From: Escherichia phage vB_EcoM-G28
Sequence record: NC_054916.1
DNA length: 64,000 nt
Strand: one strand, 5' to 3'
The notes below the pieces were generated by a model. It was not told the origin of the DNA and searched no databases. It saw only the letters and a program-made list of their open reading frames with translations. Positions 784 to 41,909 of the stretch are shown in pieces; within the stretch, counting starts at the first letter, position 1; every line of letters starts with the position of its first letter. The translations under genes were made by a program, and so were the position numbers.

Positions 784-1500
784 ATGAATTATAAACTAAT
801 TTATGAAAAGTTAATCTCTAATGCTAAATCTCGAAAACTTGATTGCTATACTGAATCTCATCACATTATACCACGCTGTTTAAATGGTAGCGATGATGCT
901 TCAAACTTAGTAGATTTAACACCAGAAGAGCACTATGTAGCTCATCAACTTTTAGTAAAAATTTATCCTTCTGAACCAAAATTAGTCTATGCTGCTAACA
1001 TGATGACAGTTTCCACGAAATACGCTAAACGCAACAATAAAACTTTCGGTTGGATTCGTCGTAAACTCTGGGAAATAGAAAAGAATAAAGAATTCTCCCA
1101 GGAGACACGAAAGAAAATGTCTGATGCAGTAGCTAATAAAGCAAGACTAACTTGTCCTCATTGCGGTAAATCTGGATTAAGCGGGAATATGAATCGATGG
1201 CATTTTGATAACTGCCCGAATCACCCTAATCCTAAAGTTAGACCACCGATGTCTAAAGAACATAGAAATAATATCTCAAACGGACTTAAAGCAATCGTTC
1301 TTGAAGAAACATCCTGCGAATTCTGCGGAATGATAGGCAAGAAATGCGTTATCGCAGCGCATAGAAATTTCTGCAAGAAAAATCCAAATGGACGCAAGAA
1401 AACTGAAAAGACTGGTACTTGCGTCCATTGTGGTAAAGTTACCACTTTCGGAAATTTATCAAGATGGCATAATGATAACTGTAAATATAAACCTAGCTAA
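784..1500 (+). mobile_element. Free-standing HNH homing endonuclease (Mob family) with three C-terminal CxxC zinc-finger repeats
   Basis: N-terminal HHIIPRC...N...EEH HNH motif; three repeats of C-x2-C...W-H-x-D-N-C; ATG with AAGGA SD; only plus-strand gene in the early region. Confidence 0.8.
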
Positions 1501-3181
1501 TCTTAGCTAAACTAAATCTACCAACTTTTTCCATCTGAATATGCTGACCATATTCTTGTGGGTCATGGTCTTTATGCGAAATTATGAAGAAGTTGGTATC
1601 CTTCAAACCATCTAAAATTTTAGCTACATTTTTAATACCTTCAGCATCAAATGCACCGTCATACACTTCATCAAGAAATAAACAACTTATTTTAACACCT
1701 GAAACTTTTTCAGCAATATCACGCCAAGTAAATAAAAGAGCAATATCAATTCGTGCTTTTTCACCTTGACTAAATGAAGCATAACTAAAATCTTCACGAC
1801 CACGGGATTTAATTGTCTCATTAAATTCTTCATCTAATGTAAACACATAATCCGCTTCCATTATTTTAAGATAATGGTTAATCTGCTTATTAAATAATGG
1901 AATGTACTTTTTAATAATAGCACCTTTAATACCAGAATCTTTGAGCATATCAGTCAAAATTCCTCTATGGTATTTTTCCATTACTAAATTAGTTTTTGTC
2001 TTAACAATTTTATCAAGTTCTTCTTGAAGCAGTGCTATTTCATCAGCGTGGTCAATAAACTCGGATGATGCTTTTTCTATAGCCGCTTTAACCTTTTTAG
2101 CTTTATCTACCGTCGTGATTAAGGATTGCTTTTTATTACGAATATCATTTGCCAATGACTGCTGAGTCTTAATATTATCTCGGTATTCATCGACAAGAAC
2201 TTTTAAATTATCACGATGTGTTGAAAGCTGTTCAAACGAATGCGTGCATTCAGAAACTTTATCTTTAATTTTAGAAACAACTTTATCACCGGAACTTAAT
2301 TGTGACAAACAGGTTGGACATAATCCACCTTCGTGATACATATTAATGACTTTATTATACGAGTCAATTTTTGATTTAATCAAAACTGCTTCTTGACCGA
2401 TTTTATTAAATGCATCAGTCGGGTCTTCATCTAAAACAATATTAACTAATCTTTCATTAGCTTCTTCTATTTCCGATTTTAGCGTTCTAGCTTCCTTTGC
2501 CAAATCGTCATACATATTCTGTAGACGAGTAAGGTTGTCACCAGTTAATTTTTTCTGGCGTTCAACGTTATCATTATATATTTTAATTTGCTGGATAATA
2601 CTATCTTTTTTAACATCAAGCACTTGGTTTTGTGAATTTAATTCACGTATTAGTGCTTTATTAAGTTTATCCATTTCAGCTAATGTTCCTACTTCGAGCA
2701 GGTCTTCGACAAGCTTTCTTCTTGCAGGAGTGGATAGGCCCATAAAAGGGGTATATCCAGCCGTGCCGAGTACGACGATCTGTTTGAAACTGGCGTATGA
2801 CATTCCGATAAGCTGTTCAAATTCTGCTTGGAAATCTTTACTGCTGGCAGATTCATTAAGACGTGTACCGTTAACGGTGATTTCGAAAACATTTGGTTTT
2901 TGTCCTCTTTTGATATAGTACTTTTTCTCATCATATTCCATCCACAGTTCAACTAAAAGTTCTTTCTTATTTGTGCTGTTTATTAATTGGCCTTTCTTTA
3001 CATCACGAAATGGCTTGCCAAAAAGCCCAAATGTGATGGCTTCTAACATAGTAGACTTACCACCGCCATTTCGTCCAGTAATAAGAGTTTTTTGAGCCTT
3101 ATCTAGTTGAATGTCAACTCCATTTTGACCAACTGACATTATATTTTTATATTTTACTCTATTAAGTTTAAATGATTTCAT
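1493..3181 (-). CDS. 46: Recombination endonuclease subunit gp46 (SbcC/Rad50-like ATPase)
   Basis: 562 aa; Walker A GRNGGGKST near N-terminus; long central coiled coil with CPTC zinc hook; C-terminal ABC signature region. Confidence 0.95.
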   Translation of the reverse strand: MKSFKLNRVKYKNIMSVGQNGVDIQLDKAQKTLITGRNGGGKSTMLEAITFGLFGKPFRDVKKGQLINSTNKKELLVELWMEYDEKKYYIKRGQKPNVFEITVNGTRLNESASSKDFQAEFEQLIGMSYASFKQIVVLGTAGYTPFMGLSTPARRKLVEDLLEVGTLAEMDKLNKALIRELNSQNQVLDVKKDSIIQQIKIYNDNVERQKKLTGDNLTRLQNMYDDLAKEARTLKSEIEEANERLVNIVLDEDPTDAFNKIGQEAVLIKSKIDSYNKVINMYHEGGLCPTCLSQLSSGDKVVSKIKDKVSECTHSFEQLSTHRDNLKVLVDEYRDNIKTQQSLANDIRNKKQSLITTVDKAKKVKAAIEKASSEFIDHADEIALLQEELDKIVKTKTNLVMEKYHRGILTDMLKDSGIKGAIIKKYIPLFNKQINHYLKIMEADYVFTLDEEFNETIKSRGREDFSYASFSQGEKARIDIALLFTWRDIAEKVSGVKISCLFLDEVYDGAFDAEGIKNVAKILDGLKDTNFFIISHKDHDPQEYGQHIQMEKVGRFSLAKIS

Positions 3182-3196
3182 TTTGTATCCAATTGT

Positions 3197-4051
3197 TCAC
3201 AATGAAGAAAATTCTTTAACTAAAGCCTGTAATGAAGCCTCTATTGGATATCCATTCTTAACTAACATTTTCCTAAACATTACATGTTTAGGACGATTAT
3301 ATGATATCCACAATTCATACAATTTATCTTTATTATCCCAATGATAGCCTTTTCGTCGAGATGCTATATGAGCTTTTCTAATCTCCGGATTTTTCCAACT
3401 AGCAGCTACTGAATTTGATATAGCTATTTTATATTCAGGTTTTGATAAAGCAGCACGAACAGCCTTTTGGTGTTTAATTTTATTTTCTTCGTTATTAAAC
3501 CATTCCCTTGAAGCAATTGAAATTTTTTGTTTTGTTTTAAAATTATTTAATCTTTCTTTGTTATCTTTCCTATTTTTTGCTACTGAAAAATATTTTAATG
3601 CCCTTTCTCTAGCAGCATTTCTATTTTGCGGATTTGAATAATACTGTTGAAGCCTTTTTGATATTGTGTCACTTACATCTTGTTTTATAAAACTATATTC
3701 AGCAGCTATTAAATCAACTTCGGCTAAAGATAAATTTTTATATGTTTTTCCTGACATCATTCTATTTAAAGCATTTAGCATTTTTCCATTTTTACCTTTT
3801 GCTAATAAGAAATGTGCTTTAAAATGATTAAAATGACTTAAATTAACTAAATTCCATGTAGATTTTAAATATTCAGGAAATATTGATTTAGGAAGCACGT
3901 GGTGTGCTTCCGTTTTACCTGGAGTTTTAACAGTTGAATTCATAGAAATAAAATTAATGTAAGACTTGGCGTCTTCTTCACTCAACGCTAATTTTTCAAC
4001 TAATTCCTTTATTAAAAATTCATCATTAATGTCAAGTTTAAAATTCTTCAC
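3197..4051 (-). mobile_element. Free-standing HNH homing endonuclease between genes 46 and 47 (GTG start per track)
   Basis: EAHHVLPKS...NLVNLSHFNHFKAHFL HNH motif; C-terminal half resembles the C-terminus of the HNH at 23701-24480. Confidence 0.75.
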
Positions 4052-4311
4052 AAAAGATTCCTTTTAATGTATCTTTTAGACCATTCTATCATATCATCAT
4101 AATCTAAAAAGTATTCGTCAAATTCAGCCATGCAAACAACGCCTTGTGCTGTTTTTGATGTAATGTAAATTATTCCAACATATCTAGAATCTTCTTCGAT
4201 ATAATCAATATTTGCTATGAATTCATCATTAATGTCAAATGTCGAAAACTTCACAGTATGCATCCTTAATACAAGATACAGCCATATCTCGTAATGATTT
4301 AGGTGTGTCAT
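4048..4311 (-). CDS. Hypothetical small protein, start uncertain (ATG at 4311 or 4263)
   Basis: ORF in track; contains the DINDEF segment whose 19-bp coding sequence is repeated at the 5' end of the HNH gene. Confidence 0.4.
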   Translation of the reverse strand: MTHLNHYEIWLYLVLRMHTVKFSTFDINDEFIANIDYIEEDSRYVGIIYITSKTAQGVVCMAEFDEYFLDYDDMIEWSKRYIKRNLL

Positions 4312-4498
4312 TATCTAAAATGTTGAAGTTAAAAGATACAGCCCAGTCAGTGCAGACTGTAACCTTTTTAATACAATTATCTTCAACCTCTAACGGTTCA
4401 AACCAATATTCAATAATTTCTTTATGCCCAATATCATCTTTTACTTCGCATTCAAAATGCTGACTCATCATAACATTTTTAAATTCATCAAAAGTCAT
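4235..4498 (-). CDS. Hypothetical small protein (87 aa)
   Basis: ORF in track starting in overlap with the gene 47 stop. Confidence 0.45.
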   Translation of the reverse strand: MTFDEFKNVMMSQHFECEVKDDIGHKEIIEYWFEPLEVEDNCIKKVTVCTDWAVSFNFNILDNDTPKSLRDMAVSCIKDAYCEVFDI

Positions 4499-5514
4499 TG
4501 TGTTGCCTCTACATATAACTGATTTGCATATTGAATAAGTGCTTCACGGTCAGAATCAGTGATGTCTGGAATTGCATTAATGTATTCTTCCATCAATGTC
4601 TGAAGAGATTGAACTTCAACTTCTTCACTATCATCTGACTCGACAGAGTTATCAATCTTTGACACAACTCGTAATGAATGCACAACTTTTTCTAGTTCAG
4701 ATTCGAACTTCGTTAGATTTTTGTCTACTTCAGTTACTATAACACGTACTGATAGATTTGTAAAATCTTTATAGTCAATTTTTCCTTTAAATGGATAATG
4801 AATTCTACGATGCCAGGTAGTGTTGTTTGGAATAAATTCCATTCGTTCTGTTTCTGTATCAAACATCCAGAACCCACGAGGGTCATTCTCGTCACCTGCA
4901 GTTAGTGTCCATGGTGTCCCAATATATCTGACGTTAGCAGCCTCAGAGATAGTATGGAAGTGACCAGACCACACTTCTTTATAAGTCTTAAGGAAATCAG
5001 GTTCAAGACCATGAGATTTCATTCCTTTATAAAAATAAAATCCATTCAGTTCCCAGTGACCAACACAAAAAGAAGCAGAAGAAGTTTTTATGTGCTCGAG
5101 AATTTCACCAGTATTTTCTTCACACATCCAAGGAATTAAATCAATTAAACATCCGTCAAAATCTACTGTAGTAGGCTTATCATACACTTTAACATTAGGA
5201 TATTTAGCCAAAAGCTCAGTAGAAGCATTTGGATGCATTACATTTTTGTAGTGGAGATCGTGATTTCCTACAATAGTATGTAATGTGATTCCAGCGTCAT
5301 CAAGCATTTGAACTATTTCACGGGCAAACTCCATAGTTTTATGTGTAATTGCTTTTCGCACATCAAAAATATCACCATATTGAATCCATACAGTAATTCC
5401 ATTTTTCTTAGAATATTCTATCGCTTGCTTAATTCCATCAATTTGAATACCGCGAATCCACTCATCATCAGCTTTAACGCCTAAATGCCAATCACCCAAG
5501 TTTAGTATTTTCAT
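4495..5514 (-). CDS. 47: Recombination endonuclease subunit gp47 (SbcD/Mre11-like phosphoesterase)
   Basis: 339 aa; N-terminal LGDWHLG and GNHD metallophosphatase motifs. Confidence 0.95.
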   Translation of the reverse strand: MKILNLGDWHLGVKADDEWIRGIQIDGIKQAIEYSKKNGITVWIQYGDIFDVRKAITHKTMEFAREIVQMLDDAGITLHTIVGNHDLHYKNVMHPNASTELLAKYPNVKVYDKPTTVDFDGCLIDLIPWMCEENTGEILEHIKTSSASFCVGHWELNGFYFYKGMKSHGLEPDFLKTYKEVWSGHFHTISEAANVRYIGTPWTLTAGDENDPRGFWMFDTETERMEFIPNNTTWHRRIHYPFKGKIDYKDFTNLSVRVIVTEVDKNLTKFESELEKVVHSLRVVSKIDNSVESDDSEEVEVQSLQTLMEEYINAIPDITDSDREALIQYANQLYVEATQ

Positions 5515-6115
5515 GGTGTCTTTTCCATCCTAATTTAGCTGCTTTTGAAACCAGTTCTTTAATTTTTCCTTTTGTCCATTCAGGACCAGGAGGTTCATGA
5601 CATAACATTTGCTTAACTCCGTTATTATACCATTTTTTACCTTTATTATGTGATGAAGCTTTAAATTTATTTGACCTTCCTTTTACATAACCTTCTGGAA
5701 TATAAGGCAAAAAGGCAGATTTTCCTGTTAATGGATCATGTGAATGTATATTTCCTTTACAATTATGAGAACCATATAATGGATGATTTTGTCCTTTATT
5801 ATCTCTTCCAAATGAACCTTTTGGAGCAGCATATGACATATTAAAGAATAATGGATTTTTAACTGCATCATGCAATCGTTGATAATATAACTCGCATTTA
5901 ATAGCTTCTTCACGCGTATCAAATTCAGCTAAAATGCATGAATCAAATAAGTGAGGATTATCTGAAAGCTCTTTATTATAAATTTTCTTATACTTTTTAG
6001 ATAAAACTGAACCATGATATCCAGCTAAATGCCTATCTAAAGACGTAGATCCAATATAAAAAGGAGGAAGTTTATCTCCGCTATATATTGTTAAATAAGT
6101 TATATATTTTTTCAT
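5492..6115 (-). mobile_element. Free-standing GIY-YIG homing endonuclease (Seg-like)
   Basis: N-terminal YLTIYSG...FYIGST with conserved Arg and Glu; basic C-terminal region; 3' end overlaps the gene 47 start by 23 nt. Confidence 0.75.
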
Positions 6116-40773: not shown

Positions 40774-40801
40774 TTTATTCTCCTCAGTAGTTGATAGGGT
40801 A

Positions 40802-40831
40802 ATAGTATCACAACTAAAACCCTATGTAAAC
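40802..40831 (-). promoter_or_regulatory. Early promoter (GTTTAC, 18-nt spacer, TACTAT)
   Basis: Conserved early-promoter repeat. Confidence 0.6.
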
Positions 40832-40849
40832 AACTTTGTGAAATATTTA

Positions 40850-41140: not shown

Positions 41141-41170
41141 TTTATTTTCCTAATTAATTTTGATGAGGTA

Positions 41171-41200
41171 ATAGTATCACTACCTCATCAGTATGTAAAC
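41171..41200 (-). promoter_or_regulatory. Early promoter (GTTTAC, 18-nt spacer, TACTAT)
   Basis: Conserved early-promoter repeat. Confidence 0.6.
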
Positions 41201-41212
41201 AACTTTGTGAAA

Positions 41213-41909
<697 letters not shown>

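Follow-up and report, generated by a model that had tools for sequence, protein, structure and literature searches.

Free-standing Mob and Seg endonucleases, carried on host operons and overlapping upstream stop codons, are well described in phage T4 (PMC2988022). Here we describe an HNH-type homing endonuclease gene (HEG) at the start of gene 46 in a 64,000-nt stretch of Escherichia phage vB_EcoM-G28 (sequence record NC_054916.1; this whole stretch is called the window below), together with a 19-nt direct repeat shared by the 5' end of the HEG and the neighbouring gene 46.1. The window HEG resembles the T4 Mob HEGs (MobA-E, especially MobD and MobE) in its sequence family and in being a promoter-less cassette on a host operon, and, like them, it is patchily distributed among close relatives, with decaying copies in some. 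As in mobE (PMC2988022), its start overlaps the upstream stop, suggesting translational coupling. Its expected mode of spread is the intronless homing with co-conversion of SegF, SegG and MobE, in which a double-strand break in the HEG-less allele is repaired from the HEG-bearing genome with short co-converted flanks; in comparison with these three, and with SegB of T6, the present case rests on comparative sequence analysis.

Unlike the T4 Mob genes, the window HEG is not intergenic. It lies in frame within the first codons of an essential gene, using the Shine-Dalgarno (SD) sequence, GTG and six codons of that gene, for which it brings a substitute start, and it carries a 17-nt filler copied from a neighbouring gene. 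We interpret the repeat as the junction scar of illegitimate (homeologous, microhomology-guided) double-strand-break repair at the time the HEG became established, with 46.1 as the source and with no present function, and assign a probability of about 0.65 to this interpretation.

The HEG is annotated as 'homing endonuclease' in RefSeq, and the copies of T2, T6 and RB51 have been counted in genome surveys (PMC2993671). We did not find a literature description of the in-frame capture of the gene 46 initiation region, of a substitute gene 46 start, of the 46.1-derived filler, or of the three 5' solutions of this locus-specific HEG lineage. The system is of no new kind, and its history is an instructive, fairly ordinary one for phage mobile DNA. 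It offers a single-nucleotide view of how a free-standing HEG may occupy the first codons of an essential gene and still spare that gene, taking the translation signals and supplying a replacement, and of one HEG lineage with three different translation-start solutions in different phage genera. For T-even phages, the locus would also illustrate templated or microhomology-guided repair in nature. Within gene 46, a stretch of 47 nt is nominated as the candidate target of the uncharacterised endonuclease of the classic phages T2 and T6, and the annotation is corrected with respect to the GTG starts of the HEG and 46.1 and the true start of gene 46.

Insertion of the HEG into the start of gene 46

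The window represents a Tequatrovirus of the T2/T6/RB51 type and is, in this stretch, 99.9% identical to vB_EcoM_G2540-3. The order of genes on the minus strand is 47, 46.2, 46.1, the HNH open reading frame (ORF) and 46 (Table 1). Alignment of the interval to T4 and other relatives defined the boundaries of the insertion (3164-4033): the insert amounts to 870 bp in respect to T4, with HEG-less records spanning 831 bp versus 1701 bp in the window. The whole interval is held by 70 of 517 Tequatrovirus-type phage records (T2, T6, RB51/RB68 and PP01 among them), and the HEG-less records, including T4 and RB59, have a clean empty site, i.e. the HEG is a presence/absence polymorphism at a fixed locus.

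Table 1. Coordinates of the features at the 47-46 locus of the window.
Feature	Position	Strand	Extent or basis
Mob-like HNH homing endonuclease ORF (HEG), 284 aa, GTG 4051	3197..4051	-	PHROG and MobD similarity
870-bp insert	3164..4033	-	HEG codons 7-284, 15-nt spacer, replacement gene 46 codons 1-6; T4/RB59 alignments
Captured gene 46 translation-initiation region	4034..4063	-	SD AAGGA 4063-4059, GTG 4051-4049, codons 1-6 GTGAAGAATTTTAAACTT 4051-4034
Replacement gene 46 start	3164..3196	-	spacer ACAATTGGATACAAA (weak SD GGA), then ATGAAATCATTTAAACTT (MKSFKL)
9-nt direct repeat TTTAAACTT flanking the insert	4034..4042 and 3164..3172	-	gene 46 codons 4-6
Resident repeat copy TTGACATTAATGATGAATT	4220..4238	-	gene 46.1 codons 6(TT)-12; exact match
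Derived repeat copy	4017..4035	-	final 2 nt of gene 46 codon 6 (captured) and initial 17 nt of the insert (HEG codons 7-12)
Polymorphism-rich patch in gene 46 (codons 7-22), candidate HEG recognition/cleavage region	3118..3163	-	allele comparison
Gene 46 (Rad50/SbcC-like recombination nuclease subunit)	1493..3181, ATG 3181	-	ORF list, annotations of relatives
Gene 46.1 (DUF5487, 68 aa, GTG 4254)	4048..4254	-	stop overlaps HEG GTG (GTGA)
Gene 46.2 (T4_Y03C family)	4235..4498	-	Pfam PF25721, E=3e-43
Gene 47 (Mre11/SbcD-like subunit)	4495..5514	-	ORF list, annotations of relatives

The T4 junction reads AAAAGGAATCTTTT GTGAAGAATTTTAAACTT AATAGAGTAAAATAT; gene 46 is annotated from GTGAAG (MKNFKL NRVKY), which overlaps the 46.1 stop at GTGA. 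The window shares this SD, GTG and six-codon stretch and continues into the HEG with GACATTAATGATGAATTT, the insert beginning at GACATTAATG; past the HEG stop, ACAATTGGATACAAA ATGAAATCATTTAAACTT AATAGAGTAAAATAT is found and gene product 46 starts MKSFKL NRVKY. The captured initiation region is identical to the gene 46 start of T4 and RB59. Judged from these alignments, the HEG sits in frame after gene 46 codon 6, between 46.1 and 46, and gene 46 receives a substitute ATG start from the cassette. With this in-frame position, the HEG would be translated from the SD and GTG of gene 46, coupled to the 46.1 stop. The GTG start proposed for the HNH gene is plausible, since T4-type phages have this GTG annotated as the start of gene 46. 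The original prediction had the endonuclease gene capturing or duplicating the start of the resident gene between 46 and 47. This is correct for 17 insert-specific nucleotides, which copy 46.1 codons 7-12; the start itself belongs to gene 46, to which the SD AAGGA, the GTG, the six codons for MKNFKL and the overlap (GTGA) with the stop of 46.1 were traced, and not to 46.1.

The nearest paralogues of the HEG (41-45% identity) are all found at the same locus, the 47-46 interval, of other T4-like genera, namely in AV113 (Mosigvirus), in Melville (Gelderlandvirus) and in a metagenomic contig from Logan. They help to explain the 3' end of the insert. The junction between the end of the window HEG and gene 46 is 88% similar to that of Melville (GGATACAAAATGAAATCATTTAAACTTAATAGAG vs GGATATTAAATGAAAACTTTTAAACTTAATAGAG), and ATGAAATCATTTAAA, in the replacement start, is identical to the gene 46 start of RB69. 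In the +2 frame the window reads ..NNWIQNEII*, with the TAA within gene 46 codons 4-5, and this end matches the HEG ends of AV113 (..NLSENI*), Logan (..TLNENI*) and Melville (..RILNENF*); the 3' end of the cassette, including the gene 46 start, was therefore inherited with the HEG. The actual terminus of the window HEG, ..EFSSL*, looks secondarily shortened. In a Logan variant (P0019, 290 aa) a late frameshift gives ..EFLHCEQLDTK*, and the TGA overlaps the gene 46 ATG (ATGA).

A transposon-type target-site duplication was considered and rejected, the duplicated 18-nt starts being only 14/18 identical (GTGAAGAAT.. vs ATGAAATCA..). The downstream 18-nt copy has its homologues in the gene 46 starts that accompany the cousin HEGs, and was thus carried in with the cassette rather than made on insertion. 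A derivation of the 3' flank of the insert from an RB69-type 46.1 stop region was likewise abandoned, as its place was taken by the better-supported homology to a Melville-type overlap of the HEG C-terminus and gene 46.

Characteristics of the 19-nt direct repeat

The exact 19-mer AATTCATCATTAATGTCAA (plus strand) is present in two copies, at 4017-4035 and 4220-4238, where the original prediction had placed it. Further copies with up to 2 mismatches are absent from the 64 kb, the next best match having 3 mismatches, and the observed count of 3 matches was reached by none of 100 dinucleotide shuffles. Exact direct repeats of at least 18 nt spaced by no more than 1 kb number only two across the whole window. 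Among 60 simulated 64-kb windows (third-order Markov model), a local repeat of at least 19 nt was observed in none and one of at least 17 nt in 2. With these controls, and with the same arrangement present in ~69 independently sequenced genomes, a chance repeat (for which the AT-rich DNA would speak) or an assembly artefact retains a nearly negligible probability.

The spacing of the copies, 203 nt, equals the separation of the GTG starts at 4254 and 4051, and both copies consequently cover codons 7-12 in the same register. Both encode DINDEF, as proposed, with the codons counted from the GTG of each gene. The cttcaca motif noted earlier behind both copies is located 10 nt past each of them, at 4046-4052 and 4249-4255; it corresponds, as reverse complement, to the GTGAAG with which both genes begin. 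The neighbouring ORF, given at first as 4048-4311, does carry a copy; its gene is 46.1, which starts at GTG 4254 and has 68 and not 87 residues. The in-register identity of the two ORFs is 12/40 upstream of the GTG codons, 12/18 in codons 1-6, 17/18 in codons 7-12 and 8/24 beyond, so the patch is sharply bounded. The derived copy sits exactly on the breakpoint between T4 sequence and insert: on the minus strand, the last 17 nt of the repeat (GACATTAATGATGAATT) are the first 17 nt of the insert, and these are HEG codons 7-12.

The T2 copy of the HEG shows a synonymous GAC to GAT change within the repeat, which indicates that exact identity of the copies is not being maintained. When folded as RNA, the three start regions did not outperform shuffled sequences (z = -0.1 and -0.9), and a structural or regulatory RNA role for the repeat was dropped for this reason. 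A sigma-70 promoter scan returned only background. Another reading is a functional duplication, i.e. a shared cis element for GTG-initiated coupled expression or a DINDEF peptide needed by both proteins. We consider it improbable, in spite of the fact that both ORFs start with GTGAAG, are coupled to an upstream stop and have the element at the same distance from the start, and that all intact HEG proteins of the 90% cluster keep MKNFKLDINDEF. The HEG clade (at least 98.6% identical) is too young for such conservation to inform; the RNA structure does not go beyond the shuffled controls, the T2 HEG copy is already substituted inside the repeat, paralogous HEGs work from quite different N-termini, and the 46.1 homologues vary in this segment.

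Direction of the transfer

A single copy of the 19-mer, in 46.1, is present in each of five HEG-less genomes (T4, RB59, PhiZZ30, G2540 and PYPS2T), and two copies are present in the HEG-bearing RB51, PhiZZ23 and the window. HEG-less relatives with both copies were not found among these five, and the repeat, which the original prediction took for an insertion or recombination scar, does mark the 5' boundary of the HNH homing-endonuclease insertion. In the HEG-less Gaprivervirus UPEC07, 46.1 starts ATGAAGACTTTTGAATTTAATCTTGATGATGAATTTGTAGCAAAT (MKTFEFNLDDEFVANIDY); the diverged homologue of the repeat is CTTGATGATGAATTT, and Gaprivervirus 46.1 encodes NLDDEFVANIDY from this diverged DNA. The corresponding segment of RB69 46.1 is EIHRHEF (..YEIHRHEFSIGDGY). 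Because homologous, normally diverged segments occur in 46.1 of Gaprivervirus and RB69, the segment appears native to 46.1, and because the HEG copy is identical to the T4-type version of 46.1, the HEG copy would be the derived one. On these comparative grounds, 46.1 can be taken as the source of the 17 nt.

The reverse direction, in which the HEG would be the original owner of DINDEF and would have passed it to T4-type 46.1 before being lost from most genomes, is very improbable. HEGs do cycle through gain and loss, and the T2 and RB51/RB68 copies are frameshifted. Against this, ~450 HEG-less Tequatrovirus records all keep the 46.1 region at 95% identity or above (with the exact copy in the five inspected directly), 46.1 of Gaprivervirus and Mosigvirus carries a homologous D/E-x-x-(D/H)-E-F with normal divergence, and this N-terminus forms part of the 46.1 profiles in both Pfam and PHROG.

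Probable native N-terminus of the HEG, and its cousins

In the exhaustive search (1.84 billion representatives), residues 2-6 of the relatives typically align to residues 11-15 of the window HEG; residue 14 aligns to position 4 of the HNH PHROG profile, and the offset to the Logan HEG is 10 residues, as confirmed by HMMER from residue 26. These offsets indicate ~10 extra N-terminal residues on the window HEG. The gene order in Melville and in the Logan contig is 47-HEG-46, with 46.1 and 46.2 missing, and their HEGs have their own ATG or GTG overlapping the gene 47 stop (MIDAETILK.. and VIDTICILK.., respectively). Judged by this arrangement, Melville and Logan show an unfused, ancestral-type state. 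Their HEGs share with that of the window the family, the position directly upstream of gene 46 and a homologous 3' junction (GGATA..AAATGAAA...TTTAAACTTAATAGAG); unlike the window, they have their own start over the gene 47 stop and no borrowed leader.

The Mosigvirus HEG (AV113/F2) also lies in the 47-46 interval, with its 3' end abutting or overlapping the gene 46 start and with a linked, altered gene 46 5' allele. As in the window, its N-terminus is borrowed from a resident gene in place of the initiator: the first 22 nt of the AV113 HEG (ATGACGAAGACTGATTATGAAA, MTKTDYE) are the first 22 nt of RB69 46.1. The order is 47-46.2-HEG-46 and the rest of 46.1 is gone, so that in AV113 the HEG replaces 46.1 outright with no duplication, whereas the window keeps 46.1 and has a composite leader from 46 and 46.1. 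An ungapped alignment places M1 of Melville on E7 of AV113 and on E11 of the window; the position expected for the HEG's native initiator would then coincide with the end of the borrowed leader in AV113 as well as in the window.

Proposed origin of the repeat

In this proposal, a T4-type genome retaining 46.1 acquired a locus-specific Mob-type HNH cassette, which settled upstream of gene 46. The broken 3' end of the recipient (...GTGAAGAATTTTAAACTT) could have annealed, in register, to the first codons of 46.1 (GTGAAGTTTTCGACATTT), with which it shares 12/18 nucleotides and the terminal TT. Its extension would then have run through GACATTAATGATGAATT and entered the HEG at about the second HEG codon. 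This may have occurred by one of two routes: (a) on a donor with the HEG already fused behind 46.1 codons 1-12, as in AV113 today, or (b) through a short templated filler from 46.1, followed by a switch into the HEG at the TT microhomology. Either route would explain the identical register, the sharp edges, the 46.1-to-HEG direction and the loss of the HEG ATG. The borrowed 11-12 codons would stand in for the HEG's own initiator, and the cassette would later have spread by ordinary homing among the Tequatroviruses; the activity of the HEG and its homing are predicted. A precedent exists in T6, where SegB-induced breaks repaired at microhomology give duplications (PMC13096335).

Several observations weigh against this origin. 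A 46.1(1-12)::HEG intermediate was not present in 50,697 phage records, in which the chimeric query returned only the normal two-piece arrangement; the exact 30-mer over the repeat/HEG junction was absent from IMG/VR and from JGI metagenome contigs; and the intermediate did not appear among the 10 contexts listed from index blocks with the 46.2 protein (the 24 longest of ~1,240 blocks), in which the exact 46.2 protein occurs in two architectures. A relative with 50-95% identity to the HEG, which could polarise the N-terminus, was not found among the 1.84 billion representatives. The first ~25 residues align weakly between the HEG lineages, and the end of the patch at HEG codon 1/2 depends on the ungapped assumption. 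In addition, some family members start MN.DF... or MKNLFLIKEL, and part of NDEF could therefore be native to the HEG.

The last point also favours ectopic gene conversion after the insertion. In this scenario the HEG first stood after gene 46 codon 6 with a fortuitously similar N-terminus (e.g. M-N-D-E-F-L-I-K), and 17-19 nt were then overwritten from 46.1, 203 nt upstream. Since family members often start in the above way, xNDEFLIKEL would be typical of a native N-terminus; the patch is also short, with an edge on either side, and T4 recombination is very active. Even so, conversion is unlikely. It requires ~11 nt of pre-existing similarity, by chance and in the same register, as well as two crossovers within ~20 nt that are flanked by poor homology (12/18 and 8/24), and the nearest paralogues (AV113, Logan and Melville) put the native Met at about residue 11 and not 8.

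Gene 46 alleles and signs of homing

When 7 HEG-bearing and 11 HEG-less genomes were compared, the only fixed differences in the flanks were located in gene 46 codons 1-3 and 21-22. Codons 21-22 are GGA GTT in HEG-bearing vs GGG ATT in HEG-less genomes (window 3118-3119; GGAGTT at 3121-3116), and the remaining flank polymorphisms are common to both classes. For gene 46 codons 6-21, three allele classes exist in Tequatrovirus, and they were counted with an 81-nt query of the HEG-bearing allele. This exact allele was found in 68 records, which fits the 70 HEG-bearing records minus Ac3, which looks recoded (see below), and the window-like genome with private single-nucleotide polymorphisms. The T4-type allele (95-99% identity band) was found in 74 records, including the window-like, HEG-bearing G2540-3, and the divergent patch of the RB32/RB14/G2540 type, also present in RB3, in 242 records. 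Commonest among the HEG-less classes, the divergent patch differs by 13 substitutions over 46 nt and encodes an RB69-like peptide (RYQ..GGNP); it extends from precisely the HEG insertion site to codon 21 (LNRVRYQNIMSVGGNP, RB69-like protein). Conversely, AV113 has a T4-like patch at codons 12-20 within an RB69-like gene 46.

Such an allele mosaic is what co-conversion together with target-site immunity would produce, and it nominates gene 46 codons 6-22 as the probable recognition/cleavage region of the HEG product; the HEG-linked allele of gene 46 may protect against cleavage. The start ATGAAATCATTTAAA is HEG-linked in Tequatrovirus and is the HEG-less state in RB69, and a GTG-AA(G/A)-A.. start is the HEG-less state in T4 and HEG-linked in the Mosigvirus AV113. 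This reciprocity of the start alleles hints at cross-genus traffic of the cassettes.

A wider scenario, which we regard as speculative and rather doubtful, is that of a locus-specific HEG lineage (in Tequatrovirus, Mosigvirus, Gelderlandvirus and an uncultured T4-like phage) engaged in a long arms race with the 5' end (~22 codons) of the essential, Rad50-like gene 46. The 47-nt hypervariable patch (codons 6-22) would be the target, and the cassettes would survive by means of a substitute start and by using in-register homeologous template switching to capture, time and again, the start codons of resident genes. In that case, the 19-nt repeat would be a rare preserved 'templated filler' signature, which could still mediate a reversible 203-bp deletion fusing 46.1 to the HEG.

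The HEG product and its decay

The HEG protein matches phrog_655 ('homing endonuclease', E=4.8e-45) and phrog_12434 ('HNH endonuclease', E=2.5e-15), and in tblastn it is 30% identical to T4 MobD (E=4e-11). A conserved block, TEAHHVLPKSIFPEY...WN.V.L...H..AH (HH...N...H core), aligns across 30 relatives. These similarities place the predicted product in the Mob/HNH phage endonuclease family. Sequence searches in Pfam (including HNH), NCBIfam and PDB gave no match, a word-indexed protein search gave 5 matches only, and no confirmed relative was found in IMG/VR. The AlphaFold model, computed from an alignment of 5 sequences only, has a predicted local distance difference test score (pLDDT) of 47.7 and a predicted template modelling score (pTM) of 0.28, values too low for a beta-beta-alpha-metal fold to be read from it.

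The HEG is frameshifted in T2 (ORFs of 204 and 85 aa) and in RB51/RB68 (208 aa), as expected late in the HEG life cycle. A sequence in Ac3 (OK040907.1, 33660-35937), ~72% identical, was considered as a natural intermediate allele and rejected, because it looks recoded. In the part equivalent to window ~3150-4051 (the HEG and the first gene 46 codons), nearly all differences fall on third codon positions and the start reads GTT. The differences lean to codons preferred by E. coli (CTG, AAC, CGT and GGC). By this pattern, the segment would seem to be synthetic, codon-optimised or a contaminant of the assembly rather than a natural allele.

Neighbouring genes and other observations

The product of gene 46.1 matches Pfam PF17589 (DUF5487) with E=4.9e-48; residues 20-85 of the long ORF correspond to profile positions 1-66, starting at the GTG codon, and phrog_2327 spans residues 1-68 of 68. 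The GTG start of 46.1 is also annotated in RB59 and RB51, and an ATG is present at the homologous position in UPEC07. Some GenBank records, UPEC07 and G2540 among them, have gene 46 annotated from an internal ATG (codon 15) or 46.1 from upstream ATG codons; the comparative data support the GTG starts over these annotations.

Two other putative homing endonuclease genes flank the locus. The first (784-1500, plus strand) is of the HNH type, encodes 238 aa with a weak Pfam HNH match, and is located just past the 3' end of gene 46 on the opposite strand. The second (5492-6115, minus strand), a GIY-YIG gene of 207 aa between alpha-gt and gene 47, overlaps the start of gene 47 by 23 nt and is missing from PhiZZ30 and PYPS2T.

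Within gene 46, 18 clustered substitutions, mostly 3 nt apart, are found at 2708-2795 (minus strand) and are private to the window in comparison with eight other Tequatroviruses (the near-identical G2540-3 was left out of this comparison). The cluster probably came from a divergent phage as a small mosaic patch. The other long local direct repeat of the window (40791-40844 and 41160-41213; 22 nt exact, 54 nt at 83%) involves two intergenic regions, and on the minus strand it resembles duplicated T4 early promoters (GTTTACA ... TACTAT).

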